Positions 1 through 29,068 of a stretch of 64,000 nt of DNA are shown in pieces. The stretch comes from Escherichia coli (GTDB lineage: Bacteria; Pseudomonadota; Gammaproteobacteria; Enterobacterales; Enterobacteriaceae), in the NCBI RefSeq assembly GCF_022846255.1, contig NZ_AP025682.1; one strand, written 5' to 3'. Positions within the stretch are counted from its first letter, which is position 1. Every line of letters starts with the position of its first letter. Below the pieces are notes generated by a model. It saw only the letters and a list, made by a program, of their open reading frames with translations, had not been told where the DNA came from and did no database searches. The translations under genes were made by a program, and so were the position numbers.

Positions 1-1650
1 CTGACGGTCACCGTAACGGACTGTGGTGGAAATCCGGTTGCCAATGCCCCCTTTAGCATCAGACGTGGCGATGCTATAAATCGTCAAGGAACGGTGAATT
101 CAGCCAATCCGGTTTCACTGGATTCAACGGTTTTAACCAATACCTCGACGGAATATAAAGGAACAACTGGAGAAGACGGCACGGTGAATATTGCTGTAAC
201 CCAGAAGTCTGGTGAAGGGGTGAAAACTCCATTGTATATCAGTACGACCGGGATGGTTCAGCCGATCCAGCAGGATGTTATTTTCACCGTTGTAACCAGT
301 CCGGACAGTACGCTCGCCAATATGTGGGGCCATATGCCAGAAACCCTGACTGCGGCCAATGGGACTGTATTTGCTCGCCCCAAACTTTCTGCTGAAGCTA
401 ATGGCGGTGGTGGTACACAATCTGAGACTAACGAAGTATGGGCGATATTTAACCATAAGAAAGCAATTGCATCAGGAGCGAATGCGGTTGGTTGCGGTGG
501 GATGGAATACGTTCCCAGCGAGGAAAATTTGCACTCACTCTATAGTGCATTTTCTTCGGGAAACATCAAAATCACCCAGGGATGGCCGGTTTCTGTAATC
601 TATAAGTCCTCGACACCCGACAAATATGTAACAACAGCTCGTAATTACAATGCGGTTAACCTGAGCACCAACAGTGTGAAAGGTCAGCAAACATCCAATT
701 CAGTACACTATTTAGTGTGTCAAAAAGAGGCTGCTCCTGTCATAAAATCAATAGCCATCAGCACTCAAGATTCTCAGTATGTGTCGGTAGTAGGGTTCAA
801 TGACGCCAGAGATAATGGGGGTAGAGTGAAAACTTTTGATGCCCTGAAATTAAAAACATGGGGTAAGGGCAGTGGTTCGATGACGGTTAAAGTGACGGGG
901 AGCGATAATAAGCCATTAAAAAATGGTCCGTTTATGCTGCTACACGCTCCTGGGTTTGATCGCCAGGGCGGTATACACGCAAATCATACCGACACGGTTC
1001 AGTTTAAAGATAGTCATAGCAGTAGTACGAATAGGAATATGGGGGCTATGGACGTTTATTATGGGACAACAAATGATAGCGGTGAGCTGACGTTTTCATT
1101 AAGCCAGCCGCAGGATGGAACTGGACTAGCCGTGATCATGAGTGCCCGAGATGACGATTATGTTCATAATATACTCAGTAATGATTTCCCTGTTATTTTT
1201 GCGACAGAGACGAGCCCGGATACGAAAGAAGCGAAGTATTGGGGGTATATGTCTGAAACACAAGTACTTGGTGGCAGAGTATTTAATCGTCCTAAATTGG
1301 TGAGTGAGTTACCGGTGTCTGGGGATAGTATTAGTCCTGGAGGCGCTGATGCTGAGGTTTGGGCAGGGATTTCCGGGGATGATTCTCTTGCGGGTATTAA
1401 CGGTGGCTGTGCAGCAGATAAACGACCAACAGTAGCGGAGTTAAATGATTTGCGGTCTGTATATAATACGAGTCACCAATACGGCTACTTTATGAAAGGG
1501 GGATGGCCTGCAATCGGTAAAGATACTGGGCAGAATGAATACTGGACAGATGTTGCCGAGGCGCGTTTTGGATACATGGAGATGTATTCAGGAGATGTAC
1601 ATTACATTGCGGGTGGCCTAAACACGGCAATGCAGATCTGTGCGCAGTAA
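1..1650 (+). CDS. 3' end of a giant Ig-like repeat protein (Rat-family-like); the reading frame is open from window position 1, so the gene starts upstream of the window
   Basis: Frame 1 is open from nt 1 to the stop at 1648-1650 (ORF track lists only from the first Met at 94). The translation has two Big_1-like segments and two copies of the FTV.TSPD..WG(H/Y)M..RPKL motif that recurs nine times in the 2693-aa protein downstream. Confidence 0.75.
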   Translation: MTVTVTDCGGNPVANAPFSIRRGDAINRQGTVNSANPVSLDSTVLTNTSTEYKGTTGEDGTVNIAVTQKSGEGVKTPLYISTTGMVQPIQQDVIFTVVTSPDSTLANMWGHMPETLTAANGTVFARPKLSAEANGGGGTQSETNEVWAIFNHKKAIASGANAVGCGGMEYVPSEENLHSLYSAFSSGNIKITQGWPVSVIYKSSTPDKYVTTARNYNAVNLSTNSVKGQQTSNSVHYLVCQKEAAPVIKSIAISTQDSQYVSVVGFNDARDNGGRVKTFDALKLKTWGKGSGSMTVKVTGSDNKPLKNGPFMLLHAPGFDRQGGIHANHTDTVQFKDSHSSSTNRNMGAMDVYYGTTNDSGELTFSLSQPQDGTGLAVIMSARDDDYVHNILSNDFPVIFATETSPDTKEAKYWGYMSETQVLGGRVFNRPKLVSELPVSGDSISPGGADAEVWAGISGDDSLAGINGGCAADKRPTVAELNDLRSVYNTSHQYGYFMKGGWPAIGKDTGQNEYWTDVAEARFGYMEMYSGDVHYIAGGLNTAMQICAQ

Positions 1651-1686
1651 ATTTCAATATTAGCATTATTCTTTAAATGAATGTTT

Positions 1687-1717
1687 GCCCCCATGTTTTT
1701 ACATGGGGGCAATTTTT
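1687..1717 (+). terminator. Rho-independent terminator after the upstream giant gene
   Basis: Perfect 9-bp inverted repeat GCCCCCATG / CATGGGGGC with a 6-nt loop, followed by AATTTTT, 37 nt after the stop codon. Confidence 0.7.
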
Positions 1718-1776
1718 AATACCGATAAACCTGTGCTAAAGTTTTGCCTTATTAACCGAAATCGCAGGAGACTTCG

Positions 1777-2001
1777 ATGGAAGTGCAGTGTCCGGTTTGT
1801 CATCAATCTATTGAATTACATGGCGGTAGTGCGCATTGTGAATATTGCCAACAGGATATCGCGTTTCAGGCGCTTTGCCCGGATTGTCATCAACCCTTAC
1901 AGGTGCTAAAAGCGTGCGGTGCGGTGGACTATTTTTGCCAGAACGGTCACGGATTAATTTCTAAAAAGCGTATTGAATTTTTGCCGTTTAATATCATTTG
2001 A
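1777..2001 (+). CDS. yfgJ: Small zinc-ribbon protein, YfgJ-like (74 aa)
   Basis: AGGAG 7 nt upstream of the ATG. Four CxxC pairs (CPVC, CEYC, CPDC, plus C47/C54), typical of a double zinc ribbon. Sits where yfgJ lies next to xseA in K-12; identification from memory. Confidence 0.55.
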   Translation: MEVQCPVCHQSIELHGGSAHCEYCQQDIAFQALCPDCHQPLQVLKACGAVDYFCQNGHGLISKKRIEFLPFNII

Positions 2002-2059
2002 ATATATTGTTTTATCATTTATATATTCCATGTGAATGGTAAAACAATTTCTTACTGAC

Positions 2060-2110
2060 CGCACTATTAATATAATTGAGTATGAACAATCATGTATAAT
2101 GTTTAAGAAT
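2060..2110 (+). promoter_or_regulatory. Candidate sigma70 promoter region for sinH in an AT-rich intergenic stretch
   Basis: TATAAT hexamers at 2071-2076 and 2095-2100, the second preceded by TG; no well-spaced -35 found. AT-rich spacer 2002-2200 upstream of the sinH start. Confidence 0.25.
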
Positions 2111-2200
2111 ATATTTAGCCTTTTCTGTCGTGCTATCCCGGATGTTCTGGAATAGAATGGCAGAATTCATTTTTGACTTTATTGTCAATAGGGAAAAGGT

Positions 2201-4375
2201 ATGCTGCGATGGACACGCTGTATTATGCTAACATTTATCTCTGGGGCTGCTTTTGCGGCTCCAGAGATAAATGTTGAGCATAAAGAATCATTACCTGATT
2301 TAGGTAGTCAGGCCGCACAACAAGAAGAACAAACCAACAAGGGGAAATCGCTAAAAGAGCGTGGTGCCGATTACGTCATTAACTCCGCCACGCAAGGGTT
2401 TGAAAACTTGGCCCCTGAGGCGCTGGAATCTCAGGCCAGAAGCTATCTGCAAAGTCAAATCACCTCAACCGCACAATCTTATATTGAAGACACACTCTCT
2501 CCCTACGGTAAGGTCCGTTCGAACCTCTCCATTGGTCAGGGCGGCGATCTGGATGGCAGTTCCATCGATTATTTTGTTCCCTGGTACGATAATCAAACCA
2601 CTGTTTATTTCAGCCAATTTTCTGCACAACGAAAAGAAGATCGTACGATCGGGAATATTGGGCTTGGTGTAAGACATAATTTTGATAAATGGTTGTTGGG
2701 TGGAAATATATTTTATGATTATGATTTTACCCGTGGGCATCGCCGTTTAGGTTTAGGTGCCGAAGCGTGGACTGATTATTTAAAATTCTCTGGCAACTAT
2801 TATCACCCGCTTTCTGACTGGAAAGACTCCGAAGATTTCGATTTTTATGAGGAGCGTCCTGCGCGCGGCTGGGATATTCGCGCCGAAGCCTGGCTTCCCG
2901 CTTATCCGCAGCTTGGTGGTAAAATTGTTTTCGAACAGTATTACGGTAATGAAGTCGCGCTTTTTGGCACTGATAATCTGGAGAAAGATCCCTACGCGGT
3001 AACGCTTGGACTGAATTATCAACCAGTGCCGTTACTGACAGTTGGGACGGACTATAAAGCGGGGACCGGAGATAACAGTGATGTCAGCATTAATGCCACT
3101 CTTAATTATCAGTTTGGCGTTCCGCTAAAAGATCAATTGGATAGCGATAAAGTGAAAGCGGCGCACTCGCTGATGGGCAGCCGTCTTGATTTCGTTGAGC
3201 GTAATAACTTTATTGTTCTGGAATACAAAGAAAAAGATCCGCTTGATGTCACCCTGTGGTTGAAAGCGGATGCCACCAACGAGCACCCTGAGTGCGTCAT
3301 TAAGGACACTCCCGAAGAAGCCGTCGGTCTGGAAAAATGTAAGTGGACCATTAACGCACTCATTAATCATCACTACAAAATCGTTGCGGCCTCCTGGCAG
3401 GCGAAAAACAATGCTGCCCGCACGCTGGTGATGCCGGTTATCAAAGAGAATACTCTGACAGAGGGTAACAATAACCACCGGAACCTGGTGCTGCCTGCCT
3501 GGCAGTACAGTTCCGATCAAGCCGAACAAGAAAAACTCAATACCTGGCGGGTTCGTCTGGCGCTGGAAGATGAAAAAGGCAATCGGCAGAGCTCCGGTGT
3601 GGTGGAAATCACCGTTCAACAGGACCGTAAAATTGAGCTCATCGTTAACAACATCGCCAATGTACCGGATAAGAGCAATCACAGCCACGAAGCCAGCGCA
3701 CAGGCCGATGGTGTAGATGGTGTAGTGATGGATCTCGATATTACTGATAGCTTTGGCGACAACACTGACCGCAACGGTAATGTCTTGCCGCAGGATAATC
3801 TCAACCCGCAGTTGTTTGATGCCAACGATAAAAAAGTGACGCTGACGAATAACCCCTGCACTACCGAGACTCCCTGTGTCTTTATCGCCAAACAAGATAA
3901 AGAAAAGGGGACCGTTACGCTCTCCAGTACGTTGCCTGGCACCTTCCGTTGGAAGGCGAAAGCTGCTCCCTATGATGACAGTAACTATGTTGACGTAACG
4001 TTCCTGGGTTCTGACATCGGCGGGCTGAATGCCTTTATCTATCGTGTTGGTGCGGCTAAGCCCGTGAATCTTATCGGCAATAAAGAACCGTTGCCTCTCA
4101 ATAGCAGCTATCGCTTTGTGTTGTGGCGTGACGCTAACAAAGACGGCGTGTTCCAGCTATCAGAGAAACTCACTGAAGAGGAGATGAAACAGTATGACTA
4201 TCAGTGGGAATTCACGGGACATAGCGTGAATGGCAATACCGGTGCGCAAGCCAATACCACTAACGTCGATATAGAGATCCCGGCAACGAACAAGGAAGCG
4301 GCAGCGAAGTTTAGTGCCCAGGTAACCGATGGCGTGCAGGGATACGGTTTGCAGGTCAATTACAGCAAGAAATAG
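2201..4375 (+). CDS. sinH: Inverse autotransporter adhesin of the intimin/invasin family (SinH-like), 724 aa
   Basis: N-terminal signal peptide (…FISGAAFA/APE). Residues ~110-330 show intimin/invasin beta-barrel-type sequence (DYFVPWYD, LGLGAEAWTDYLKFSGNYYHPLSDW, GWDIRAEAWLP, LGLNYQP), followed by an Ig-like passenger. RBS GGAAAAGG upstream. Confidence 0.85.
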   Translation: MLRWTRCIMLTFISGAAFAAPEINVEHKESLPDLGSQAAQQEEQTNKGKSLKERGADYVINSATQGFENLAPEALESQARSYLQSQITSTAQSYIEDTLSPYGKVRSNLSIGQGGDLDGSSIDYFVPWYDNQTTVYFSQFSAQRKEDRTIGNIGLGVRHNFDKWLLGGNIFYDYDFTRGHRRLGLGAEAWTDYLKFSGNYYHPLSDWKDSEDFDFYEERPARGWDIRAEAWLPAYPQLGGKIVFEQYYGNEVALFGTDNLEKDPYAVTLGLNYQPVPLLTVGTDYKAGTGDNSDVSINATLNYQFGVPLKDQLDSDKVKAAHSLMGSRLDFVERNNFIVLEYKEKDPLDVTLWLKADATNEHPECVIKDTPEEAVGLEKCKWTINALINHHYKIVAASWQAKNNAARTLVMPVIKENTLTEGNNNHRNLVLPAWQYSSDQAEQEKLNTWRVRLALEDEKGNRQSSGVVEITVQQDRKIELIVNNIANVPDKSNHSHEASAQADGVDGVVMDLDITDSFGDNTDRNGNVLPQDNLNPQLFDANDKKVTLTNNPCTTETPCVFIAKQDKEKGTVTLSSTLPGTFRWKAKAAPYDDSNYVDVTFLGSDIGGLNAFIYRVGAAKPVNLIGNKEPLPLNSSYRFVLWRDANKDGVFQLSEKLTEEEMKQYDYQWEFTGHSVNGNTGAQANTTNVDIEIPATNKEAAAKFSAQVTDGVQGYGLQVNYSKK

Positions 4376-4430
4376 GATCAGCGCCATGGCTGATCGGGCC
4401 ACCGCTGAATGTTAACCAAGGAGAGTGTTT

Positions 4431-5423
4431 ATGAAACCTCATATGAAACGTGGCCTGACAAAAGTCGCGCTGGCGCTGATGCTGGCTGGATACTGTGCCG
4501 TGCCAGCCGCTATGGCGGAAGATGCCGCCTGGGTAGACAGTGGGACGACCGCTGAATTCGAAGGGACCATACCCTGGCTTTATCGCGAGGGGGGGAATGC
4601 CACGATTAACTCGGATGATGCGGATCACATCAAAGTAACGTCTGATGGTAAAGGTACTCGTCCTTCAGGTAGCGAGACGGATAAACGCCTTTACTCAGGA
4701 GATACCATCACGTTGGGGTGGGATATCGGCGATACCGAAGGGGATATCGACGATGGTCCAGATGGTATTGATGCGAAAACGACGGCGACTATCAAATGGT
4801 ACAGCTACAGCGATAATGCGGGTGGCGGTAAAACGGAGCTGACCGCAGCGGCGGGTAAGACGAGTTATAAACTCACTGATAACGAACGTGGGCGCTATAT
4901 CGGTGTTGAAATCCAGCCTATCACTCAGACCGGTAATCCCTTCCAGGGAACGTCGCTGACTCTGCTGGATATCTCAACGGCCAGCGGTGGCGGCAGCGAT
5001 ACGGACAATGTTGATCCTGGCCCGGTTGTGAACCAGAACCTGAAAGTCGCCATCTTCGAGAAAGGCACCAGTACCAACCTTATCGGTGGTAATACAGCCA
5101 TTGCGCTTAACAAAACGTATGTGGCCAAACTGTACTCGGATGAAAACCAGAACGATAAGTACGATGCGGGTACGGATGTGGACGTTACCGCTAACTATGA
5201 CTTTGCATGGGTCTTTAACGGTAACAGTAAACAACTTGCTGCGGCGGGTGGTATTGCCAACGCCAGCTTCGATAACAATGACATTGTTATTCCGCAAACT
5301 AACGAACAAGCAAGAGCCAGCCTTAACGGTAGTGACCGTAATGGTAAGACCGGTCTTGCAATCCCGGCAAACGGCGACGGCGTCCAGGGCTATACGCTGT
5401 CTATCATTTACAAACACCACTAA
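4431..5423 (+). CDS. sinI: Secreted protein of unknown function (SinI-like by position), ~330 aa
   Basis: AAGGAG 7 nt upstream of the ATG at 4431 (ORF track starts at the GTG at 4425). Signal peptide (…AVPAAMA/EDAAW). C-terminal DGVQGY motif shared with SinH; N-terminal W…G.T.EF.GT.P motif shared with the giant protein. Symbol assigned from synteny only. Confidence 0.7.
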   Translation: MKPHMKRGLTKVALALMLAGYCAVPAAMAEDAAWVDSGTTAEFEGTIPWLYREGGNATINSDDADHIKVTSDGKGTRPSGSETDKRLYSGDTITLGWDIGDTEGDIDDGPDGIDAKTTATIKWYSYSDNAGGGKTELTAAAGKTSYKLTDNERGRYIGVEIQPITQTGNPFQGTSLTLLDISTASGGGSDTDNVDPGPVVNQNLKVAIFEKGTSTNLIGGNTAIALNKTYVAKLYSDENQNDKYDAGTDVDVTANYDFAWVFNGNSKQLAAAGGIANASFDNNDIVIPQTNEQARASLNGSDRNGKTGLAIPANGDGVQGYTLSIIYKHH

Positions 5424-5431
5424 TGCGCACC

Positions 5432-5462
5432 AACAGCATTCCCGTATGGGAATGCTGTTTTC
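5432..5462 (+). terminator. Intrinsic terminator or attenuator between the sinI-like gene and the giant gene
   Basis: Inverted repeat ACAGCATTCCC / GGGAATGCTGT with loop GTAT, followed by TTTTCC, 9 nt after the stop codon. Confidence 0.45.
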
Positions 5463-5533
5463 CGCCTGTTTTGCTTAGCGACGCGTTAAGCAAAACGGGT
5501 TGACGTTTTGTTTATCATGCTGGAGTTTTCTAC

Positions 5534-8500
5534 ATGTCGGTATGTCTGAAACCAGGAAAAATCATTGTGCTTCTGGGCATGTTGGCAGCCTTTATGCTGT
5601 CTGACTTTGCACGGGCAGGAGTGGAATGGCAGACATATCCTGGTTCTACAGGCGAGTTTAACGGTACAGTTCCTATTGCCGATAGCGCCAGCGTACCCGT
5701 CTATCAGGGAAGCGTTCAGCTTGATCCTGCTGCATCTCATGATGTGGCGTTTTCTGCTAAACCGAATGAATTTAGCGTTGACGATGACGCTGCTAACCTG
5801 ATAGTCGCTAATCCTCAGGACAGTGAAGGCGACCAGTTTTCCACACCACCTGCGCTGCGCTGGGAAAAACAAACGCCGCCGACCGTTAGCCTGGTGTGGG
5901 CCGATGCCGCCACGCCGGATACGCCGCTTAATCCACAGCCTACCGCCAACCGTAGCTTTTGCGCTCAGGGCCTGGCCGGGCGTTCGCTGGTGGCCTGGCC
6001 GCAGATTGATGCGCAGCAGACCATTCCACTGCTTTATCTGCTGACTTCGACCGGTTATCCCTATGAGGGGACGGTGGCGCTGGCTGACCAGAAAGTGACG
6101 CTGAACATCGCGCCCGCGCAGGGCGATTTAATCTCGGTGAGCGCCAGTGGTTATAACGAAACGATCGCGGCGGCGAAAACCACCGTTGGTGACACCATCA
6201 CGCTAACTGTTACCACCAAAGACTGTCAGGGCAACGTTGCGGGCAATATTCCTTTTATTATCAAACGACAGGATGCGAAAAACCGCCAGGATGCGGTGAA
6301 TAACACCGCACCGGTGGTGCTGGATAGCACCGAGTTAACGACGACCGCGACCGAGTATCACGGCACATCGGATGCCAACGGTACGGCAACCATCACGGTG
6401 ACCCAACCTAATGGGCCCGGCGTCAAAACGCCGCTGGTGGTCAGCATCTCCGGCATTGCGCAAACCAGTGAGACGGCGGTTATTTTTACCGTACTCACCA
6501 GCCCGGACGTGGCGCAGGCCACGATGTGGGGCCATATGGCGGAAACGGTTGAGGCTCATGGCTACACGTTCAGCAGGCCAAAACTGGCGGCAGAAGTCAG
6601 CAATGAAAATGCCACGGTCGTCGATCACAACGAAACCTGGTCAACTTTCACCTGGAGCGGGGCAGACAGCCATTGCACCGTGCTGCCGGGCATGCGCCAT
6701 TTCGGCGCACTGGCGACCGTTATTCCCACCACGGTACAGACTGTCCTCGGCTGGCCGATGCAGGATGATTATTACTGGACATCGCTGGCGGGCACTACCG
6801 GGCAGCACCATGCGGCGGATGTCTCTAACCGTGCTGAAGCGCAAAAGCCGGATAGCACCACGTTTCTTGTAAGCTGCGTGGACAAACCCGCGCCTGACGT
6901 CGAACCGAAAATCGTCCTTACGCCAGAAAACTATGATGATACGGCACAGGCGATGAAAGCGAAGGTGGGTGAGGACGCCACGATGCGTCTGACGATCACC
7001 GACAATAAAAACAACGATCAACCGCTGGCGTATTACTACTTCTCGCTGCATCTGGATGACGGCGTTAACCGCAAAAATCAAACCGATCCTGCCTGGGAAG
7101 CTCATCCGGTACAGATTGCTGGCGGCAGTAATTTTCGCCAGGTCGACGCACATACCTATGAGGGCATGACTGATGTCAACGGTCAGGCTTCGCTAACCCT
7201 GAGCCAGCCTGGTGGCGCGGGCGTTAAAACTCACATTACGGCGAAAATGCGCAGCGATTTTAACGCCACGGATGCCAAAGATGTGATTTTTACCGTAATC
7301 ACCAGCCCGGACAGCGACAAAGCGCGGATGTGGGGCCATATGCGCGGCATTATTGAGTCCGGCAGTCTGTATAAACGCCCGTTGCTGGCGGATGAAACCG
7401 AGCATGAACTGGGAACAGTGCGGGAAAACAACGAAGACTGGGCGTTGTACGATCAAAACACCAGTATGCAGGCGGAATGCGGGGTGGGTCATATACCGCG
7501 CCAGAGCTCACTGGAAAGCCTGTTTTCAGCCCATCCCGGTAACGCGATTGGCACTGAGTATGGCTGGCCCACCGCACAACAGAGCTACCTAAGCGCGGTG
7601 GAGCAAGAAACGCATTCATCGGTGAATCTGGGGAACGGGAGCGTCGACAGCTATTCCGGCTTTAAGCAGAATTACCTCTCCTGTTCGGGTAATGAGATGG
7701 TAGCGAATGTTGAAGTCAGCACCGATCATGATGTGTCTGTTGGCACCCAAGCGCAAGCCAAAGTGGGTGACACCATCGTAATGACCGTGCGTACGATTAA
7801 CTCGCTAAATAATTCCCCGGTACCCTTTAGCGCATTCACCATTACCAAAGGTATGGGATATAACCGAGCGGGACAGGTGAGCGGGTTTGATGACCCGAGT
7901 AGCGGCGCAATCACGATGGATAACTCGCAATATGGTACATCACAGCCATCGATGGTTTATGCGGGAACAACCGATGTCCGGGGCGTGGCGACGGTCGAGA
8001 TTAAACAACCGCAGGGCGTCGGGCTAAGAACGGCGCTGAGCGTAACGCCGGTAAATTCCTACCTGCCGAATACCGTTAACTACAGCGTTATTTTTACCAC
8101 CCCAACCAGCCCGGATGTTTCCGGCGCGCAGATGTGGGGCCATATGGATGAAACGATTACCGTTGATTCATCAACCTTTAGCCGGCCTAAGCTGGCGGCG
8201 GAAATCGCCAGCCCGGACGGAACCCTGACCGAAAATAACGAAATCTGGGCGCGCGTGAGCCAGGCCAATACGTCCAGTACCAGCAAAGGCGGCTGCGGCA
8301 CCAATATGCTGCCGCGTCGCTCCCAGCTAAGCGCGTTGTATAGCGCCAACAGTGGTAACGCGGTGCAAACGACGCACGGCTGGCCAACGCAACGTCAGCC
8401 CTACTGGAGCAGCTCACCGGCGGATGTGACACCGCACTTTTTCACGATAGCGCTGAACGATGGCGCGCAGGCCATCGGCGGCAATACGCCGGTTTACGTC

Positions 8501-11500
8501 AGTTGCCTGACGACGGCGAACAAGCCTGCCAGCAGCATTACGCTGGAGGTGGTTGATAAAGCGCAATGGAATGCGGGGAATAACGCGGCAAAGCTGAAAA
8601 AAGGTGAGACACTACAGGTTAAAGTGACAGTAAAAGACTCGCAGGGTAACGCGTTAGCGGATATGCCATTTACCCTCAGTCGCGGTGATGGCTATACCCG
8701 TAGCGGCGAAAAACATATTGCCGGTAGCGGCGATGCGCTGGTAGCGCCCGTGGTGGTCAATGGCGGGTTGGCAGATGAAACAACGTTGAATGACACTGCA
8801 ACGGTGTATACCGCCATGACCGGCAGCGACGGCAGCAAAATCCTTAATATTACCCGCCCGGATACCCACGGCACCAAAACGGCGCTGACGGCAACGCTTT
8901 ACTCCGATGCGACGAAAAAAGACAGCCTGGACACGATCTTTACGGTGGTTACCAGCCCGGATAGCAGCCAGGCGAAAATGTGGGGGCATATGCCGGAAAC
9001 GGTGACGGCTGAGGACGGTACGGTCTTTAAACGCCCGCGGTTACTGAAGGAACTGAGCAGTCAGACTGGGCGAACATCAACGCTTGAAGACAACGAAAAC
9101 TGGGCGTTGTTTAACATTAATTATGCGAGCTCTTCCACGACGTATAGTGGCTGTGGAACCAACTATATTCCAACTCAGGCTGGTCTGACGTCACTGTTTG
9201 CTAATAATGCGGGCAACACCATGAAAACCGTGCAGGGCTGGCCGGTGGCAACGCGCTATTTGTCCAACACGTCCGACAATGGCAGCATGGAGCAGCGTAA
9301 CTACAAGGCGGTCGATCTCAGCAATGGCACGAGTGCGGCAGTGTCATCAACGGCGCTGCAACTGCTGACCTGTCAGACTACACCGGTAACCACGGTGAGC
9401 CAAATCCTGCTGGAAGCGGCAGATCCGGCGACGCTGGATACCACCTATAACGTGGTAAAAGCGAAAAAAGGCGAAGAATCCGTGGTGCGCGTCACCACCA
9501 AAGATGCACAAGGCAACCTGGTGGGCAATACGGCATTTATCCTGACGCGTGCCAACAGCGTGAGTCGGGCTAATGCATCAGCGACGATGAGCGTGGGCTC
9601 GTTGACGGTGACGGATGCCTGGGGCAATACGCGAAATAATTTCCAGTCGACAAGTGAAACCATTTACGGCGTGACCGGTGCTGATGGGGCAACGACATTG
9701 ACCCTGAAACAGGATAACAGTACCGGGTTAAGAACCGATCTCACGGCAAAACTGGATACGTCCAGCAGCGTCAAGGCAACGCTACCGGTGGTCTTTACCG
9801 TCGTGACCAGCCCGGATTCGCCAAAAGCGAATTTTTGGGGACATATGGCCGAAACGGTGGCGGCCTCCGATGGCTCGGTTTATAAGCGACCATTGCTGTT
9901 TGGCGAACTGACCAACAACTATGCGCGATATAGCACGCTTGAGAACGGAGAAAGCTGGGCAAGATTCACCTCGACTCAGTCGATTGACACCAGCATGAAT
10001 GGGTGTGGTACAGATTATATGCCGACGCTGGATGGTCTGAAGTCTTTGTATGACGCCAATAGCGGTAATGCGATGAATACGGTGCAGGGATGGCCGGTAA
10101 ATACGAGTTATCTCACCAACACCCCGAGTGATACACAAGCAGGGAGCCGTTACTACAATGTGGTGCAACTGAATTCTGGCGCGGTTTCGCAAATCGTATC
10201 CACAGTGCTGGCGTTACAAACCTGCCGCACGACGCCGTTGACGACTGCCAGCCAGATTACGCTGGAAGCCGCGGATCCTGCGCAGTTTGTCAGCATTGAT
10301 AGTACGCTTAGCGCTGTCAAAGCGAAGAAGGGCGATGAGGTGTCGATCCGCATTTCGACTAAAGATGCGCAGGGGAATTTAGTCGGCAATACGCCGTTTG
10401 CCCTGAAACACGCGAACTCGATCAATCGTCAAAATGTGACGTCATCGCAGAAAGTGTCGGTCACGACTGCAGCGGGTACGACGGTGGATACCAGTGCAGC
10501 GACCATCCTGTATGGCGTAACCGGGCCAGACGGAACGACGACGATGGCGCTCCGACAGGATGCGTCCACCGGACTACGAACCGACTTTTATGCCTTGTTG
10601 AACGATACCGGCGTGTCGTCGGGCACCTTGCCGGTGATCTTTACCGTTATCACCAGCCCGGACACGCCGCTGGCGGCCAACTGGGGCCATATGGCGGAAA
10701 CCTTTACCAGCAGCGAAGGCGTTACCTTCAAGCGGCCTTTCCTCAAAGCTGAACTTTCCGGCGGTACGGCGAAAACGGTCAATAATGAAGTCTGGTCGCT
10801 CCTGACATCGACTGAGAAAGCGGACGCCAGCAAGGCCGGGTGTGATGAGGCGTATCAACCGCAGACGACAGACATGCAGGGGCTGTATGCCGATTATCCT
10901 AACGGCCAACTGGCAACGGTGCTCGGCTTGCCGACTGCCGCCGGGAACTGGTGGGATTATGACATGATGGCGGCAGTGAGCAATAGCTGGAGTTACCAGG
11001 TGTTTTCGCCGGGTAATGGCCAAACGATTCAGGCATCGTCCGGCTATACGGCGGTAGTGATGTGTCTGGTAAAACCACATACGGAAGCGGCCACAATAGA
11101 GATTACCTCGACGGCGCAGGACGCAGCAAAATCGGCCAGTAATGGTGGACGACCGAGCGCCGTAGCGAAGAAAGGTGAGACGATTCCGTTGACGGTGACC
11201 GTGCGTGATAGCGCCGGGAACCCGATGCCATATGCCGACTTTACCCTCTCGCGTGAAACGACGCTGGATCGCTCGAAAACAGCTGTTAACAGTGCGGTGG
11301 ACGATCTTACCGTAACGGCATTGGTACCGGCGAACAGGGATAGCGTGTTGACAGCGAGCGGAGCAAAAACTCTCGCAACGACGGGCAGCGATGGCACTGC
11401 CACCTTTGAGGTGGGGCAGTACTCTACGACCGGGCTGGCGACGCCGTTAACCGTGACGCTGGCGCGTGATACGACGAAAGCTGCCACGCTGGATGTTATC

Positions 11501-13615
11501 TACACGGTGATCACCAGCCCGGATTCGCCGAGTGCGAAATTCTGGGGGCATATGCCAGACACCTTTACCAGCTCGGCGGGCGTCACCTTCAAACGGCCGT
11601 TGCTGAAAGCCGAAGCGACGTCAGGCTCATCAATTAGCACTAACGGTAACGGTGAAGTGTGGGCGTATATGAGCAACTTGCAAAATTTAACATCGACAGA
11701 TTGCCCGCTGGAGTATCAGCCGCGCAGCAACGAGCTGTTGGATTTATATAGCGATCACCCGAACGGCGCGATAATGACTGACCTGGGGCTACCGATATAT
11801 GCAGGCAAGTGGTGGGCTTATGATATGGTCATGCCGGATTTATATACGTGGCAGTATCAGACTGTCAGCCTGAGCACCGGAGATATCGCGAAGAGCTCGT
11901 CAACCAACGCGCTGATGCTTTGCCTGACGAAGCCGCATCCGGCAGGCGTCAGCGTAATGTTGACGTCATCCGCAATGGATAACGCCAGAAGCCTCAGTAA
12001 TGGCGGGCGACCTAGCGCGTCAGTGAAAAAAGGCAACCCACTGCCAATTGTAGTGACGGTCAAAGATCGTGATGACAACCCGCTGGCGGGAGAGGCCGTG
12101 ACGCTCAGGCGTGGTTCAGCGATGAGCCGTTCAGGAGCAGTAGTGGGCACGCCGGCAAATGCAATGACGTTGACAGAGTTGACACCCGTGTCGGCGGAGT
12201 TTTCTCTGGCCGCACACGATACGCAATGGCAAGGTTTCACCGGCAGTGATGGTACGGTCACTTTCAATGTTGAACAGCCTGAGACCATCGGCCTGGCCAT
12301 CCCGTTCACCGCTATACTGGCGCGAGATGTGGCAACCACAACTGTCCTTGATGCGATCTTTACCGTCGTCACCAGCCCGGATTCCACAATGGCGACCTAC
12401 TGGGGTCATATGCCGGATACGGTCACGGCGGAAAACGGCGTGGTCTTTGAACGGCCTAAATTGTTGAAAGAGTTGCCGTCGAGCACCGGAATTAGTCAGG
12501 TGACGGATAACAATGAAGTCTGGCCGCTGTTTAAGGCAACGCAAAGGGAAGATAGCAGCCTCAGTCCTTGTGAAGCGGCGCGTCGGCCATTGAGCGATGA
12601 TTTAGAATCGCTCTACGCGCGCTATCCGGGGAACACGCTGACGACACAAATCGGTTGGTCTACGCGGTATACATGGTGGGCGCTGGATAACTGGCAGGGG
12701 AATGCCCAGGTTGTTAGTCTGAGTGATGGCTTAAAGTGGTCGACGGTGAATACCGCGTATCAAGGGTGTCTGGTTAACCCGCGCGCGACGGTCTCCAGCG
12801 TCACGCTGACATCAACGGCGCTGGATGACGCCACACAGGCGGCGACGGTGAAAAAAGGCGACGCCGCGCCCATTGTCGTTACCGTAAAAGACAGCGCCGG
12901 GAAGCCGGTGCCAAATATCGCTTTTACCCTAAAACGCGGTGAGGCCGTGCCACGTAACAGCGGGGCGACGCTGTATGGCGATGTGGATGCGATGGACGAT
13001 TTGGCCGTGCAACCTTCATCCGGTGCGGCAGTCACGTTGGCTGACAGCGGAAATACCATCGACGGAGTCACGGGAGCGGACGGTACGGCAAGCTTTACCG
13101 TTCGTCAGGATAATACGCCAGGATATAAAACGCCGTTGACGGTGACGCTAACGGATAACGCCACCATAACGGCGACGCTGGACACGATTTTCACCGTGCC
13201 GACCAGCCCGAATGTCGCCACGGCGTATTTCTGGGGTCATATGGCGGATACCGCCACGGTAAGTGGCAAGACGCTGCATCGCCCGCTATTAAAATCGGAG
13301 TTGCCGTCAGGCGCTACCGCAGCAGCAACGCCTGATGTAAATAATGAAACCTGGGCGCTGGCGCATGTTATGGATTCCTCTAAATGGGATGTCGCGCAGC
13401 AGTGCGGCAGTATGAATAACGTGCCGAGCAGTGCCGAATTACAAACATTACACTCCGGCTTTAGCACATTGGGATGGCCGTCCTCGATAAGCTTCCCGTA
13501 TTTATCTACTGATAAGGCTGGGTCGTTCTATTGTGGTGTTGATGAAGGCTCTGGCAGTCTCAACTGTGGCATTCAGCCTGCGAAAACGCCGGGGTTTGCA
13601 ACCTGTTTCCAATAA
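5534..13615 (+). CDS. ratA: Giant secreted Ig-like repeat protein (RatA-like), 2693 aa
   Basis: GGAG 6 nt upstream of the ATG. N-terminal signal peptide (…[11 protein letters not shown]), no lipobox Cys. Nine tandem ~280-aa modules, each with a Big_1-like segment, an (I/V)FTV.TSPD…WGHM…RP.L motif and a Cys-pair segment. No beta-barrel-like region recognised. Confidence 0.85.
6170..13500 (+). repeat. In-frame tandem array of nine coding modules inside the giant gene (period ~800-860 nt)
   Basis: The TSPD/WGHM motif recurs at about nt 6500, 7300, 8110, 8950, 9810, 10650, 11515, 12370 and 13205. DNA copies are diverged, with pairs 4/5 and 6/7 most alike. Confidence 0.75.
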
Positions 13616-13645
13616 CCTTATCCACCTTGTCAATATGAGGTTCTG

Positions 13646-15197
<1,552 letters not shown>

Positions 15198-16664
15198 ATG
15201 CTACGTATCGCTAAAGAAGCTCTGACGTTTGACGACGTTCTCCTCGTTCCTGCTCATTCTACCGTTCTGCCGAATACTGCTGACCTCAGCACCCAGCTGA
15301 CGAAAACTATTCGTCTGAATATCCCTATGCTTTCCGCAGCAATGGATACCGTAACGGAAGCGCGCCTGGCTATTGCTCTGGCTCAGGAAGGCGGTATCGG
15401 CTTTATCCACAAAAACATGTCCATTGAACGCCAGGCAGAAGAAGTTCGCCGTGTGAAAAAACACGAATCTGGCGTGGTAACCGATCCGCAGACCGTACTG
15501 CCAACCACGACGCTGCGTGAAGTGAAAGAACTGACCGAGCGTAACGGCTTTGCTGGCTACCCGGTTGTTACCGAAGAAAACGAACTGGTCGGCATTATCA
15601 CCGGTCGTGACGTGCGTTTTGTGACCGACTTGAGCCAGCCGGTTAGCGTTTACATGACGCCGAAAGAGCGTCTGGTAACCGTGCGTGAAGGCGAAGCCCG
15701 TGAAGTGGTGCTGGCAAAAATGCACGAAAAACGCGTTGAAAAAGCGCTGGTGGTTGATGATGAATTCCACCTGATCGGCATGATCACTGTGAAGGATTTC
15801 CAGAAAGCGGAACGTAAACCGAACGCGTGTAAAGACGAACAAGGCCGTCTGCGTGTAGGTGCAGCGGTTGGCGCGGGCGCTGGTAACGAAGAGCGTGTTG
15901 ATGCGCTGGTTGCCGCAGGCGTTGACGTTCTGCTGATCGACTCCTCTCACGGTCACTCTGAAGGTGTTCTGCAGCGTATCCGTGAAACTCGCGCTAAATA
16001 TCCTGACCTGCAAATCATCGGCGGCAACGTGGCAACTGCTGCAGGTGCCCGCGCGCTGGCAGAAGCCGGTTGCAGTGCCGTTAAAGTGGGTATCGGCCCT
16101 GGTTCTATCTGTACGACGCGTATCGTGACTGGTGTCGGTGTTCCGCAGATCACCGCCGTTGCTGATGCAGTAGAAGCCCTGGAAGGTACCGGCATTCCGG
16201 TTATCGCTGACGGCGGTATCCGTTTCTCAGGCGATATCGCTAAAGCTATCGCCGCTGGCGCAAGCGCGGTGATGGTAGGTTCCATGCTGGCAGGTACTGA
16301 AGAATCTCCGGGTGAAATCGAACTCTACCAGGGCCGTTCTTACAAATCTTACCGTGGTATGGGTTCCCTGGGCGCGATGTCCAAAGGTTCTTCTGACCGT
16401 TACTTCCAGAGCGACAACGCTGCCGACAAACTGGTGCCAGAAGGTATCGAAGGCCGCGTAGCCTATAAAGGTCGCCTGAAAGAGATCATTCACCAGCAGA
16501 TGGGCGGCCTGCGCTCCTGTATGGGCCTGACCGGCTGTGGTACTATCGACGAACTGCGTACTAAAGCGGAGTTTGTACGTATCAGCGGTGCGGGCATTCA
16601 GGAAAGCCACGTTCACGACGTGACCATTACTAAAGAGTCCCCGAACTACCGTCTGGGCTCCTGA
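15198..16664 (+). CDS. guaB: IMP dehydrogenase
   Basis: Translation from the ATG at 15198 ([16 protein letters not shown]…) gives the 488-aa GuaB; the ORF-track start at 15129 is an upstream in-frame Met. Confidence 0.95.
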
Positions 16665-16732
16665 TTCTCTTCGCCCGACTTCATGTCGGGCGATTTATAT
16701 TATCTGTTTCACTTGCCTCGGAATAAGCGTCA

Positions 16733-18310
16733 ATGACGGAAAACATTCATAAGCATCGCATCCTCATTCTGGACTTCGGTTCCCAGTATACTCAACTGGT
16801 TGCGCGCCGCGTGCGTGAACTGGGGGTTTACTGCGAACTGTGGGCGTGGGATGTGACAGAAGCACAAATTCGTGACTTCAATCCAAGCGGCATTATTCTT
16901 TCCGGCGGCCCGGAAAGTACTACTGAAGAAAACAGCCCGCGTGCGCCGCAGTATGTCTTTGAAGCAGGCGTACCGGTATTCGGCGTTTGCTATGGTATGC
17001 AGACCATGGCGATGCAGTTGGGCGGTCACGTTGAGGCTTCTAATGAACGTGAATTTGGCTACGCGCAGGTTGAAGTCGTAAACGACAGCGCACTGGTTCG
17101 CGGTATCGAAGATGCGCTGACCGCAGATGGTAAACCGCTGCTGGACGTCTGGATGAGCCACGGCGATAAAGTTACCGCTATCCCGTCCGACTTCGTCACT
17201 GTAGCCAGCACCGAAAGCTGCCCGTTTGCCATCATGGCCAACGAAGAAAAACGCTTCTATGGCGTACAGTTCCACCCGGAAGTGACTCACACCCGCCAGG
17301 GTATGCGCATGCTGGAGCGTTTTGTGCGTGATATCTGCCAGTGTGAAGCCCTGTGGACGCCAGCGAAAATTATCGACGACGCTGTAGCTCGCATCCGCGA
17401 GCAGGTAGGCGACGATAAAGTCATCCTCGGCCTCTCTGGTGGCGTGGATTCCTCCGTAACCGCAATGCTGTTGCACCGCGCTATCGGTAAAAACCTGACT
17501 TGCGTATTCGTCGACAACGGCCTGCTGCGTCTCAACGAAGCAGAGCAGGTTCTGGATATGTTTGGCGATCACTTTGGTCTGAATATTGTTCACGTACCGG
17601 CAGAAGATCGCTTCTTGTCAGCGCTGGCTGGCGAAAATGATCCGGAAGCAAAACGTAAAATCATCGGTCGCGTTTTCGTTGAAGTATTCGATGAAGAAGC
17701 GCTGAAACTGGAAGACGTGAAGTGGCTGGCGCAGGGCACCATCTACCCTGACGTTATCGAATCTGCGGCGTCTGCAACCGGTAAAGCGCACGTCATCAAA
17801 TCTCACCACAACGTGGGCGGCCTGCCGAAAGAGATGAAGATGGGGCTGGTTGAACCGCTGAAAGAGCTGTTCAAAGACGAAGTGCGTAAGATTGGTCTGG
17901 AGCTGGGCCTGCCGTACGACATGCTCTACCGTCACCCGTTCCCGGGACCAGGCCTCGGCGTTCGTGTTCTGGGTGAAGTGAAGAAAGAGTACTGTGACCT
18001 GCTGCGCCGTGCTGACGCCATCTTCATTGAAGAACTGCGTAAAGCGGACCTGTACGACAAAGTCAGCCAGGCGTTCACCGTCTTCCTGCCAGTACGTTCC
18101 GTTGGCGTAATGGGCGATGGTCGTAAGTATGACTGGGTTGTCTCTCTGCGTGCTGTCGAAACCATCGACTTTATGACCGCACACTGGGCACATTTGCCGT
18201 ACGATTTCCTCGGTCGCGTTTCCAACCGCATTATCAATGAAGTGAATGGTATTTCCCGCGTGGTGTATGACATCAGCGGCAAGCCACCAGCGACTATTGA
18301 GTGGGAATGA
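16733..18310 (+). CDS. guaA: GMP synthase (glutamine-hydrolysing)
   Basis: 525-aa ORF with an N-terminal glutamine amidotransferase part (…GVCYGMQ…) and an ATP-pyrophosphatase part (SGGVDSSV); 68 nt after guaB. Confidence 0.95.
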
Positions 18311-18334
18311 TTTGACTCTGCACTATGAATGAAC

Positions 18335-18365
18335 AAAACCCTCTGTTACTACAGAGGGTTTTTTA
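18335..18365 (+). terminator. guaBA rho-independent terminator
   Basis: AACCCTCTGT / ACAGAGGGTT stem with loop TACT, followed by TTTTAT. Confidence 0.7.
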
Positions 18366-18402
18366 TACTCACGAATCATAGGATTGAAGTTACTAACATC
18401 GA

Positions 18403-18942
18403 TTAATTAAACCAGCTATCTGATTTATTCTCTTCTGCTTTACCCACGCTTTTCATCAGATCGCGACCGCCTTCAGTCATATTTCTGTTTGCGTCAGCTT
18501 CAGATTGCACCACATCGGTTTGCGCAGCTTTGTGCTTCAGTTCCTGATCGATAAATTCGTTTTCGCGCTTAACGCGGGCTTCTTCTTTCGCCAGCGCCAG
18601 TTTTTGTTTCTGAATCTCTAAGCTGCGTAGCTCATCTTCATAACTTTGATCGCGTTTTTTGTCCGCAGTGGCTTCGGCGTCCAGTTTATCCTGACGAGCT
18701 TTCTTATTCGCTGCTGCCGTTGCCGCTCTTTTATTAGCCGCGGCCTGGGCGTTTGCGCGACGTTGCTTCTCTTGCTGGATTTCCCTGTTGCGCTCCGCGA
18801 CCCATTCGTCATGCTGCCTTTGCTCTTCATTTTTACCTTGCTGTTCCGCTTCTGCGACAGCCGAGAGTTGATCCTGCAATGATGAGGCGATAGCCGGATA
18901 GCTTAAGGAGGCTAAGATGGTGCAAAGAAAAACTTTCTTCAT
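18403..18942 (-). CDS. yfgI: Periplasmic coiled-coil protein YfgI
   Basis: 179 aa with a signal peptide and a highly charged, Ala/Lys/Glu/Gln-rich body; K-12 synteny. Confidence 0.8.
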   Translation of the reverse strand: MKKVFLCTILASLSYPAIASSLQDQLSAVAEAEQQGKNEEQRQHDEWVAERNREIQQEKQRRANAQAAANKRAATAAANKKARQDKLDAEATADKKRDQSYEDELRSLEIQKQKLALAKEEARVKRENEFIDQELKHKAAQTDVVQSEADANRNMTEGGRDLMKSVGKAEENKSDSWFN

Positions 18943-18957
18943 GACTCCTCCTGATCA

Positions 18958-19473
18958 TTAGCTCTTTTCAGGACATTTCGTATTTGGCTGAATACGCGTT
19001 TCGTTATACGTCGTGGTAATAACAACGGCTAAACCTGTCGTAAACTGGCACTCTTTACCCACCTGGGTGGAGGTATACACTTTGGTGCCTTCCTTATATG
19101 TTAAAGAAACACCTTCCACTAAGGTTTTATCATTCACCATAGAACCCGCTGCCGCGCCTACAGCTCCGCCGCCAACTGCACCTGCCGTCGTTCCGGAATT
19201 GCTGCCAGACCCGACGTTGTGGCCGATAACACCGCCAGCGACAGCGCCAATAAGCGCGCCGAAGGCTTGTGCGTTCCGTTTATTTTGGGCGTTGTCTACG
19301 GCAACTTTTGCGGGAAGAATGGAAATAATATTAACGGTTTTAGTTTCTTGTTTGGTATTCAGTTGATCGGTTTGATAAACATCGGCGGTATGATCATCAG
19401 CATTTGACTGGCATCCTGCCAGAGTGAATGACGCTAACATTGCCACAGGCAGAAGACATTTTTTAAATTTCAT
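18958..19473 (-). CDS. yfgH: Outer-membrane lipoprotein with glycine-zipper region, YfgH
   Basis: Lipobox LAGC after the signal peptide and a Gly-rich zipper (GALIGAVAGGVIGHNVG…); start taken at the second Met. Confidence 0.8.
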   Translation of the reverse strand: MKFKKCLLPVAMLASFTLAGCQSNADDHTADVYQTDQLNTKQETKTVNIISILPAKVAVDNAQNKRNAQAFGALIGAVAGGVIGHNVGSGSNSGTTAGAVGGGAVGAAAGSMVNDKTLVEGVSLTYKEGTKVYTSTQVGKECQFTTGLAVVITTTYNETRIQPNTKCPEKS

Positions 19474-19591
19474 CACTATTCCTTGTTATACACATTACGA
19501 AAAATAAGACATTTAAGATCATCAAAAGAGGAAAGTAAATGTATTGCGTATAAAGGAATAGATTAAATTTATTAAAATTCATGCGGGAAAT

Positions 19592-19639
19592 AATTTATAA
19601 AAATACATCATCACAACATATGTATTAATGATGTATTTA
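19592..19639 (-). terminator. Candidate terminator downstream of yfgG
   Basis: 11-bp inverted repeat AAATACATCAT / ATGATGTATTT with a 16-nt loop, followed on the minus strand by a U-rich tract. Confidence 0.3.
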
Positions 19640-19786
19640 TTTCGCAGCCGAACAGGATGAACTTCAGTCAGAACAAAGACGTAAAATTTAAGATGAAAGA
19701 ATATCTGCCGCTTTGATAATCTCAAAGAGCAAAAGCATCCGACAGCGAGGTGCCGTTATGTTCTGTGAGAGTGGAGAAGGTAACCG

Positions 19787-19978
19787 CTAACGTTGTACCG
19801 GTGATTCGACGGAGAGTGTGGATTGCTGAGCTTCTTTTTTGCTCTGATGGTGCTGCCAGGCACCGACGGACGAGTAGATAAAACGGCCAAAGAAGAAGAT
19901 AAAGCTGATGAGCAGTACGATACGGGTCATGCGACTGTTAAATCGGTGTCGTTTTCGCATACTGGTTGCCTGACTCAC
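19787..19978 (-). CDS. yfgG: Small membrane protein YfgG
   Basis: 63-aa ORF with one hydrophobic helix (IVLLISFIFFFGRFIY), in K-12 synteny between yfgH and pdeF. Confidence 0.65.
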   Translation of the reverse strand: MSQATSMRKRHRFNSRMTRIVLLISFIFFFGRFIYSSVGAWQHHQSKKEAQQSTLSVESPVQR

Positions 19979-20329
19979 AAAAGGTTCCTTGAAGTATGTC
20001 CCACGCCGTGGACGGTACTTACATTAAGGCACAACAGGACAAAATGGTCAATTCTTCGTTATGTAAAAAAGCGTCAGTGGATACATATTTTAATGTTATG
20101 GAAGTTAATTTAATTATTTACAATGATGATGTAATAATGATGAGTTAACATGATAAACGTAATAATTCATTAATCAGGGTTATTTTGTTTGATATATATC
20201 AATTGGAACTTTCATATGACACTTAGAATCATTGCTCTCTATAGTGATGAATAATCATCATTCGAAGTCAGGTGGGATGCCTGTCTGAATACACCTCCTT
20301 CAGGATGTGGGGGATTCTGCTGAGCATCT

Positions 20330-29036: not shown

Positions 29037-29068
29037 AAAGCCGACTTTAAGAGTCGGCTTTTTTTTGA
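29037..29068 (+). terminator. Terminator/attenuator between upp and uraA
   Basis: AAAGCCGACT / AGTCGGCTTT hairpin followed by a T-run. Confidence 0.6.

Follow-up and report, generated by a model that had tools for sequence, protein, structure and literature searches.

Is the sinH-sinI-ratA adhesin island of Escherichia coli transcribed as one message, or do the hairpins of its spacers cut it into separately controlled units? The question arises from a stretch of 64,000 nucleotides (nt) of E. coli DNA (contig NZ_AP025682.1 of assembly GCF_022846255.1), hereafter the window, which carries in order the tail of a Rat-like giant adhesin gene, a yfgJ-like gene, sinH, sinI and a ratA-like giant gene, then the convergent xseA, and guaBA. 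The region is the E. coli variant of the adhesin island named ila in ExPEC (extraintestinal pathogenic E. coli) and CS54 in Salmonella (PMC12928451). SinH is a vaccine candidate, and the ila cluster plays a part in urinary tract infection; the relative expression of sinH, sinI and ratA has so far been poorly defined. An earlier reading of the letters, called here the original prediction, proposed that terminator-like hairpins divide the island into several separately controlled units, the giant ratA-like gene being reached by attenuated read-through or driven from its own segment at 5463–5533. What we propose, with a probability of roughly 55%, is a graded punctuation and not four equivalent stops: the hairpin behind sinI (hairpin A) would be a leaky stop, and the ratA-like gene would be reached by read-through, across a second hairpin (hairpin B). 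Positions are those of the window, and features lie on its plus strand unless otherwise stated.

Hairpin A, numbered H4a in our ranking of terminators, is probably a leaky intrinsic terminator. It starts 8 nt past the sinI stop codon, its stem of 10–12 bp, closed by a tetraloop, spans 5432–5459, and UUUUCC follows up to about 5463. The folding free energy (dG) is −19.8 kcal/mol and the z-score (z) −5.9, each z given for a hairpin being relative to shuffled sequences. This is a stable GC-rich stem-loop near a stop codon, and the hairpin with a short T-run expected between sinI and the giant gene is therefore real. Its tail, UUUUCCGC, is weaker, with 4 U's in 8 where the rule of our scan asks for 5 of 8 and an intrinsic terminator would have about 7–9 nt, mostly U, and the hairpin-plus-tail score (d) is a borderline 4.7; the UUUU is kept in 24 of 25 loci. 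In all loci 6–17 nt separate the stop codon from hairpin A.

Directly after it comes hairpin B (5461–5503), which the original prediction did not contain and which occupies most of 5463–5533. It is an imperfect stem of about 19 bp, with the core UUUGCUUAGC / GUUAAGCAAA and the base UC.GC / G.GUUGA. Its dG reaches −25.5 kcal/mol over 5459–5505; the core at 5466–5505 has −19.6, with a z of −5.4. The upper stem is conserved in sequence, the base is built from the conserved flanks UUCCGC and GnGUUGA, and G-U pairs are frequent. The duplex measures 19 bp in the window; in the loci that were read completely it has 17–20 bp, interrupted by one or two 1x1 mismatches.

This A/B module is present in every related locus that we examined (about 30), always in the spacer that leads from sinI to the first gene for a giant adhesin, in Escherichia, Salmonella (enterica and bongori), Citrobacter, Pseudocitrobacter, Superficieibacter and Leminorella, and with SinI proteins whose identity falls to 39%. 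We aligned 25 distinct spacers with MAFFT, an alignment not fitted to the structure, and looked for covariation. Hairpin A is paired in 99.6% of the cells, with 7 of its 10 pairs changed on both sides, and hairpin B in 91.5%, with 8 of 17 pairs so changed. Taken together, the two hairpins are paired in 94.4% of the cells, against 84.9% after shuffling, and 16 pairs are changed on both sides where 9.2 are expected. Of the five measures, four were never equalled by any of 500 column shuffles, and for the fifth, the number of further pair types, nine shuffles did as well; when the partners were slid by 1–3 columns the pairing was only 38–48%. Hairpins A and B are thus a conserved structured RNA, whose pairs are kept by compensatory changes.

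The exact core of the module is found a single time in the 64-kb window, as it is in every one of the 16 loci having it, and the spacer matches 1,691 of 5,426 complete E. coli genomes, at one place per genome (at two places in a single genome), with no annotated feature beneath it among the E. coli matches listed. Rfam 15 gave no match at E≤1 in positions 1–20000 of the window; for the spacers, at E≤10, it returned 12–26 bits against thresholds of 40–195, only generic hairpin or miRNA-like noise. A metagenome scan for TTTGCTTA, 5–11 nt of any sequence and TAAGCAAA produced at least 120 matches; among those listed, the E. coli-like L058 is the one real module, the others being chance palindromes, none followed by GTTGA, and no new context appeared. 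Within E. coli, the idea that this spacer is specially conserved was rejected: it is 99% identical to the nearest allele, in a stretch (4200–5800) which is as a whole at 97–100%. Rejected as well were readings of the spacer as attC-like, as dif-like (GGTGCGCATTA, minus strand, at the sinI stop), as an RfaH ops element or as a boxA, all partial resemblances seen by eye and not conserved across loci.

Some loci carry variant forms of the module (L009, 4553–4827; L031, 4967–5256; L020, 9384–9568; L018, 7320–7459). In the two Escherichia loci L009 and L031 an insert of about 165 nt, containing a REP, stands between hairpin A and its U-run, and in L020 the two hairpins are separated by an insert of 60 nt. 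In E. albertii, hairpin B has a loop of 25 nt, along with a compensatory change from G-C to A-T.

Which strand carries the structure can be told from its energies. Hairpin B is more stable as plus-strand RNA in 25/25 loci, with a mean of −20.4 kcal/mol versus −14.7 for the opposite strand (Wilcoxon p ~1e-5). Together with the G-U pairs, this bias argues that B was selected as a sense-strand RNA structure, so that transcription must enter it from upstream. As only about 2 nt lie between A and B, transcription from upstream means that polymerase reads through A or else starts within the end of sinI.

A promoter for the ratA-like gene was searched for in the spacer, from the stop codon of sinI to the ATG of ratA. 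The best sigma-70 match there is 7/12 (TATCAT at 5513) and it is lineage-specific; the spacer has 47% GC, unlike the sinH control region described below. The TTGACG at 5500–5505 was discarded as a −35, for no −10 stands at 16–18 nt in any lineage and the ATG is too close (28 nt). Two lists of transcription start sites (TSSs) obtained by differential RNA sequencing (dRNA-seq) of Salmonella hold no primary TSS upstream of ratA, sinI or sinH, genes which are barely expressed in culture; what the lists do hold are start sites of xseA, shdA and der, plus one inside ratA. The supplements of PMC4643027 and PMC6333337 are without TSS entries for these genes. Driving the giant gene from 5463–5533 thus finds little ground, this segment being mostly the conserved sense-strand hairpin B, with a non-conserved 7/12 sigma-70 match and no primary ratA TSS. 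Attenuated read-through appears, from the sequence, the better supported of the two options originally offered.

The other hairpins of the island are of very different kinds. H1, behind the upstream Rat-like gene (3' end at 1–1650, with BIg21/InvE_AD repeats according to Pfam and NCBIfam matches), is a canonical intrinsic terminator: a 12-bp stem with 7 G-C pairs at 1685–1712, 35 nt past the stop codon, followed by TTTTT at 1713–1717. It has a dG of −22.7 kcal/mol, a z of −5.7 and 0 of 200 shuffles as stable; its stem is GC-rich, its U-run counts at least 5, and the stop codon that precedes it is on the same strand. It also ranks 2nd in the window (d 44.6), and the strong terminator announced after this gene is confirmed by its energy, its TTTTT and its rank. 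H1 would fully terminate the upstream adhesin gene. The yfgJ-like gene, which encodes a double zinc ribbon (1777–2001; Pfam Zn_ribbon_6, 99 bits), starts 64 nt further. The only promoter-like feature between them is a weak extended −10-like element, TGcTAAAGT (1734–1742), a speculative promoter which could weakly drive yfgJ now that der is not directly upstream. In Salmonella SL1344 dRNA-seq a der (engA) TSS is listed and der-yfgJ is annotated as one operon (PMC3293720, supplement), an arrangement that the giant gene and H1 interrupt in the window.

After the yfgJ-like gene, H2 is an AT-rich sense-strand hairpin of 19 bp at 2006–2048, only 2 of whose 19 pairs are G-C, with a weak U-rich tail (UUUCUUAC) extending to 2056. 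The looser hairpin with a T-rich tail predicted at this place certainly exists (z −6.6), and it is strand-specific, with −17.7 kcal/mol on the plus strand against −7.4 on the reverse complement. As an intrinsic terminator it falls short: H2 lacks a GC-rich base and an uninterrupted U-run, its d is −10.7, and it did not pass a consensus scan. Among 20 related loci, the position just past the yfgJ stop holds a hairpin with z ≤ −3 in 8, a weaker one in 7 and none in 5, and the sequences are unrelated between loci except within the E. coli lineage. H2 is at best a weak terminator, a lineage-variable 3' hairpin of the yfgJ transcript; the yfgJ-like gene would give a small separate transcript ending at or near it.

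The spacer between yfgJ and sinH, of about 200 nt, has 29% GC in the window and 21–31% in all relatives. An alignment of 27 loci reveals two conserved blocks downstream of H2. The first is the motif TTTAAGAATATATTTAG at 2102–2118 (consensus TTTAGGAATaTATTTAGG), which is a near-direct repeat of TTTAGG. The second, about 34 nt past the TTTAGGAATaTATTTAGG block, is the −10-like hexamer TAGAAT (2153–2158), TAnAAT in all genera, a predicted sinH promoter; it stands about 43 nt before the sinH ATG in the window and about 40–60 nt across the 27 loci. The candidate has a good −10 and a poor −35 (GTGCTA), and from its sequence it is probably activator-dependent. Readings of the upstream motif as an RcsAB box or a PmrA box were partial matches only (about 10–11/14) and are not claimed. 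A chromosomal fusion of lacZ to the promoter of iatB (=sinH) is silent in the laboratory and responds to LeuO, and LeuO overexpression raises the iatB mRNA about 15-fold (PMC6714894). The conserved TAnAAT and upstream motif, along with this LeuO-responsive fusion, indicate that sinH has its own control region, and the separate control suggested downstream of H2 is borne out. The sinH promoter is probably silenced by H-NS as well as responsive to LeuO.

From this AT-rich region, sinH (2201–4375, an intimin-like inverse autotransporter; NCBIfam equivalog inverse_SinH, 1474 bits for a cut-off of 999) would be co-transcribed with sinI (4431–5423, a SinI family autotransporter-associated protein; NCBIfam partner_SinI, 371 bits for a cut-off of 165) across a 55-nt spacer devoid of a terminator. 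The stem-loop H3 at 4378–4408, nested and without T-run, has a dG of −16 which is not above chance against the shuffles (z −0.66, 49 of 200 as stable). As an intrinsic terminator it fails on every count: no U-run, a d of −38.9, no covariation. As a conserved RNA structure it was rejected too, its pairing being 79.1% against 79.3% after shuffling, with one pair changed on both sides; its sequence is conserved and its inner stem is absent in S. bongori. Only a T-less stem-loop had been claimed here, and this is what is found. The spacer measures about 55 nt in nearly all genera, and the Shine-Dalgarno AAGGAG of sinI (4418–4423, read directly) is conserved in the alignment. A review states, citing Shea 2022, that sinH is co-transcribed with sinI (PMC12525524). 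The constant spacer, the strong Shine-Dalgarno, the lack of a T-run and the review lead us to treat sinH-sinI as one unit, with no terminator inside.

To place these hairpins on one scale, a single hairpin-plus-tail score was given to every hairpin on both strands of the whole 64-kb window, with a formula after d'Aubenton-Carafa 1990 which is approximate and serves for ranking only. H4a comes 10th, and H4b (d −7.5) 36th; H2 and H3 fall below the best 45 listed. Matches inside coding sequence reach scores near that of H4a, for example at 5728–5749. This last hairpin, with its TTTTCT tail and a d of 11, is terminator-like and lies within 200 nt of the start of the ratA-like coding sequence, perhaps as a chance match, perhaps as an early attenuation point. 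Terminator-like hairpins also stand in the guaB/guaA spacer (16671–16693, d 36) and in the upp/uraA spacer (29037–29061, d 24), the identities of these genes being confirmed. As guaB-guaA and upp-uraA are well-known operons, hairpins that outscore H4a occur within operons, and finding a hairpin and a T-run is not enough to call a unit independently controlled. The window is thus an example in which terminator-like hairpins read from sequence do not alone mark operon boundaries. The ratA-like gene (5534–13615, 2,693 aa, Pfam/NCBIfam matches; Shine-Dalgarno GGAG and ATG at 5522–5536, read directly) is closed by a canonical terminator at 13646–13680, a stem followed by TTTTTT (z −5.1) that overlaps the stop codon of the convergent xseA. 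With canonical terminators at H1 and at 13646–13680, the cluster has strong stops on both sides and weaker hairpins within.

How could the ratA-like gene otherwise receive its transcripts? Hairpin A might be an efficient terminator and the ratA-like gene independent, with a promoter overlapping the 3' end of sinI or A itself, B then being the leader of a primary transcript. That A is conserved, covaries and is followed by UUUU in 24/25 aligned loci agrees with this scheme, and a start site just upstream of B would also put B in sense RNA. We nevertheless hold it to be unlikely, as no conserved −10/−35 exists in or near the spacer (the 7/12 match being lineage-specific), only about 2 nt are left between A and B, and the two Salmonella lists place only an internal TSS in ratA; moreover a tract of four U's is short for an efficient intrinsic terminator. 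At the opposite, A and B might chiefly serve the processing and the stability of a polycistronic sinH-sinI-ratA RNA, cut in the U-rich linker or in B by RNase E or RNase III, A protecting the 3' end of the sinHI part and B the 5' end of the ratA part, whose stabilities would then differ. The 19 bp of B in the window, 17–20 bp elsewhere, make about two helical turns, the size of an RNase III substrate (a duplex of some 20 bp or longer); loci in which A is split from its U-run still keep B, and the rpsO-pnp spacer described below is the closest analogy. The conservation of the upper stem of B is however unexpected for RNase III, which has little sequence specificity, and the conserved UUUU directly after A fits termination, so that processing as the chief role seems to us quite doubtful.

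Hairpin B could also be viewed as DNA, a palindromic operator with the half-sites TTTGCTTA / TAAGCAAA for a dimeric factor controlling ratA, the GTTGA behind it acting as −35. The arms are indeed conserved around a variable centre and TTGA follows directly; but the G-U pairs make the structure specific to the plus strand in 25/25 loci, the spacing of the arms varies (8, 9, and 25 nt in E. albertii), the changes in the arms are compensatory (G-C to A-T), and no lineage places a −10 at the proper distance from the TTGA, with the TTGACG only 28 nt before the ATG. Such an operator is very improbable. Finally, every hairpin except H1 might be incidental, a by-product of AT richness or of palindromes that takes no part in setting where transcripts end. 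H3, no better than shuffles and without covariation, would suit this idea, as would the H2-type hairpins, which about half of the related loci lack or hold only in insignificant form, and the terminator-like matches inside coding sequence. It already fails for A and B, whose covariation across six genera exceeds that of shuffles, and it accounts poorly for the z of −6.6 and the strong strand specificity of H2; as a general explanation we give it almost no credit.

Our preference goes to the leaky stop at hairpin A followed by read-through, and to a cluster that we read as three units: yfgJ alone, sinH-sinI, and ratA via attenuated read-through. With its four U's, hairpin A would act as a leaky attenuator, most transcripts ending after sinI and a fraction reaching the 8-kb ratA-like gene. 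The stop codon being 6–17 nt from A in all loci, a ribosome terminating at the end of sinI could reduce the formation of A and favour read-through. The RNA passing A would carry hairpin B as a structured leader. We would guess that this leader serves processing or stability, either as a duplex of RNase III size or as a 5' protective stem left after cleavage of the U-rich linker; the length of B and its retention where inserts split A from its U-run both suggest a function distinct from that of A. In this scheme the sequences themselves show the hairpins, their covariation and strand specificity, the lack of a conserved promoter in the sinI-ratA spacer and the conserved promoter-like motifs ahead of sinH, from which termination efficiencies, read-through and a processing role of B are deduced. 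Of the several separately controlled units originally proposed, the upstream gene, yfgJ and sinH-sinI appear separate indeed; the giant gene is probably not driven from 5463–5533, and hairpins alone are insufficient to define the units.

Several points weigh against this scheme. The score of hairpin A is borderline (d 4.7) and similar values occur inside coding sequence. Hairpin A is split from its U-run in L009, L031 and L020, and has no U-run in L013, with B intact in these loci, so that termination at A is not universally maintained. A promoter may lie within the 3' end of sinI, the missing Salmonella TSSs weigh little given how poorly these genes are expressed in the laboratory, and the role of hairpin B is a guess. 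More tentatively, A and B might together form a cis-regulatory RNA motif not described before, found only with the SinH/SinI/RatA island and kept across Enterobacterales, whose duplex would be recognised by a protein or an RNase that sets the amount of RatA relative to SinH and SinI; the strong conservation of the upper stem of B hints at a sequence-specific binder.

What is new here is modest: the conserved and unannotated A/B module, especially B, the remainder being the ordinary operon punctuation of a known island. The outcome is a testable map with a sinH promoter region, a sinH-sinI unit, a leaky stop and a structured leader before ratA, and in hairpin B a conserved RNA element whose mutation could change RatA expression.

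As for the island itself, sinH, sinI and the ratA-like gene follow in this order beside xseA, as established by NCBIfam and Pfam matches and by synteny with E. coli and Salmonella loci. E. coli genomes have the order der-yfgJ-sinH-sinI-adhesin-xseA, and Salmonella the same plus ratB. The island of the window is a rare mosaic allele. The tail of the upstream giant gene and its terminator (1–1830) have no megablast match in the 5,426 complete E. coli genomes, and the ppx-ppk of the window is 99.8% identical to complete E. coli genomes. Relative to the nearest allele of these genomes (L001), yfgJ and the yfgJ-sinH spacer (1777–2200) show 66–70% identity, sinH 93% and the stretch 4200–5800 97–100%. 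In other E. coli, der occupies the position of the upstream giant gene; this is also so for the contig with the closest SinI protein (L026). That E. coli contig, whose SinI is 98% identical, has its sinH split into open reading frames of 654 and 64 aa (7690–9945), probably a pseudogene. In E. coli E69 (L021, 5147–6137) the yfgJ-sinH spacer measures 991 nt and sinH is aligned only from residue 219, a pattern that suggests an insertion. A Citrobacter locus (L032, 1338–1559) has a Zn_ribbon_6 (yfgJ-like) gene before sinH, its upstream neighbour being a major facilitator superfamily (MFS) transporter and not der, so that the yfgJ-like gene may move along with the island; Leminorella richardii (L029) lacks this gene. 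A contig of 3.1 kb bearing the label 'MAG: Collinsella sp.' (L006), where MAG stands for metagenome-assembled genome, carries an E. coli-type sinI-ratA junction identical to that of L002, and its label is probably a binning error.

Compared with known systems, the hairpins of the window form a series. H1 and the hairpin at 13646–13680 show the full anatomy of enterobacterial intrinsic terminators, with a GC-rich stem, a short loop and 5–6 U's after a stop codon. Hairpin A shares the stem, the tetraloop and the position and differs by having only four U's before CCGC; H2 differs by its two G-C pairs in 19 and its broken U-tail, and H3 by lacking any U-tail. The guaB/guaA and upp/uraA spacers resemble that of sinI-ratA in that a hairpin and a T-run stand in a short spacer between co-oriented and functionally linked genes, with no evident downstream promoter; they differ by scores higher than that of H4a and by having no second conserved hairpin behind theirs.

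The rpsO-pnp operon of E. coli offers the nearest layout, with its leaky terminator t1 followed by a leader hairpin cleaved by RNase III; pnp has in addition its own promoter. The apparent resemblance lies in the succession of a stop codon, a terminator hairpin and a long duplex of about two turns before the next cistron; the sinI-ratA spacer has no sequence similarity to it. Closer in gene content, the ila/CS54 islands share with the window an identical gene order beside xseA, and the A/B module is found in all the related loci examined; CS54 of Salmonella holds sinH-sinI-ratA along with ratB and shdA, and the window differs by its extra Rat-like giant gene upstream of yfgJ. Finally, zirTSU of Salmonella has been proposed as analogous to SinH and the partner genes downstream of it (PMC6714894, PMC4943183). 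There too an inverse autotransporter is encoded together with secreted partners, as SinH is with the genes that follow it, and this analogy argues for the co-expression of SinH and its partner genes.

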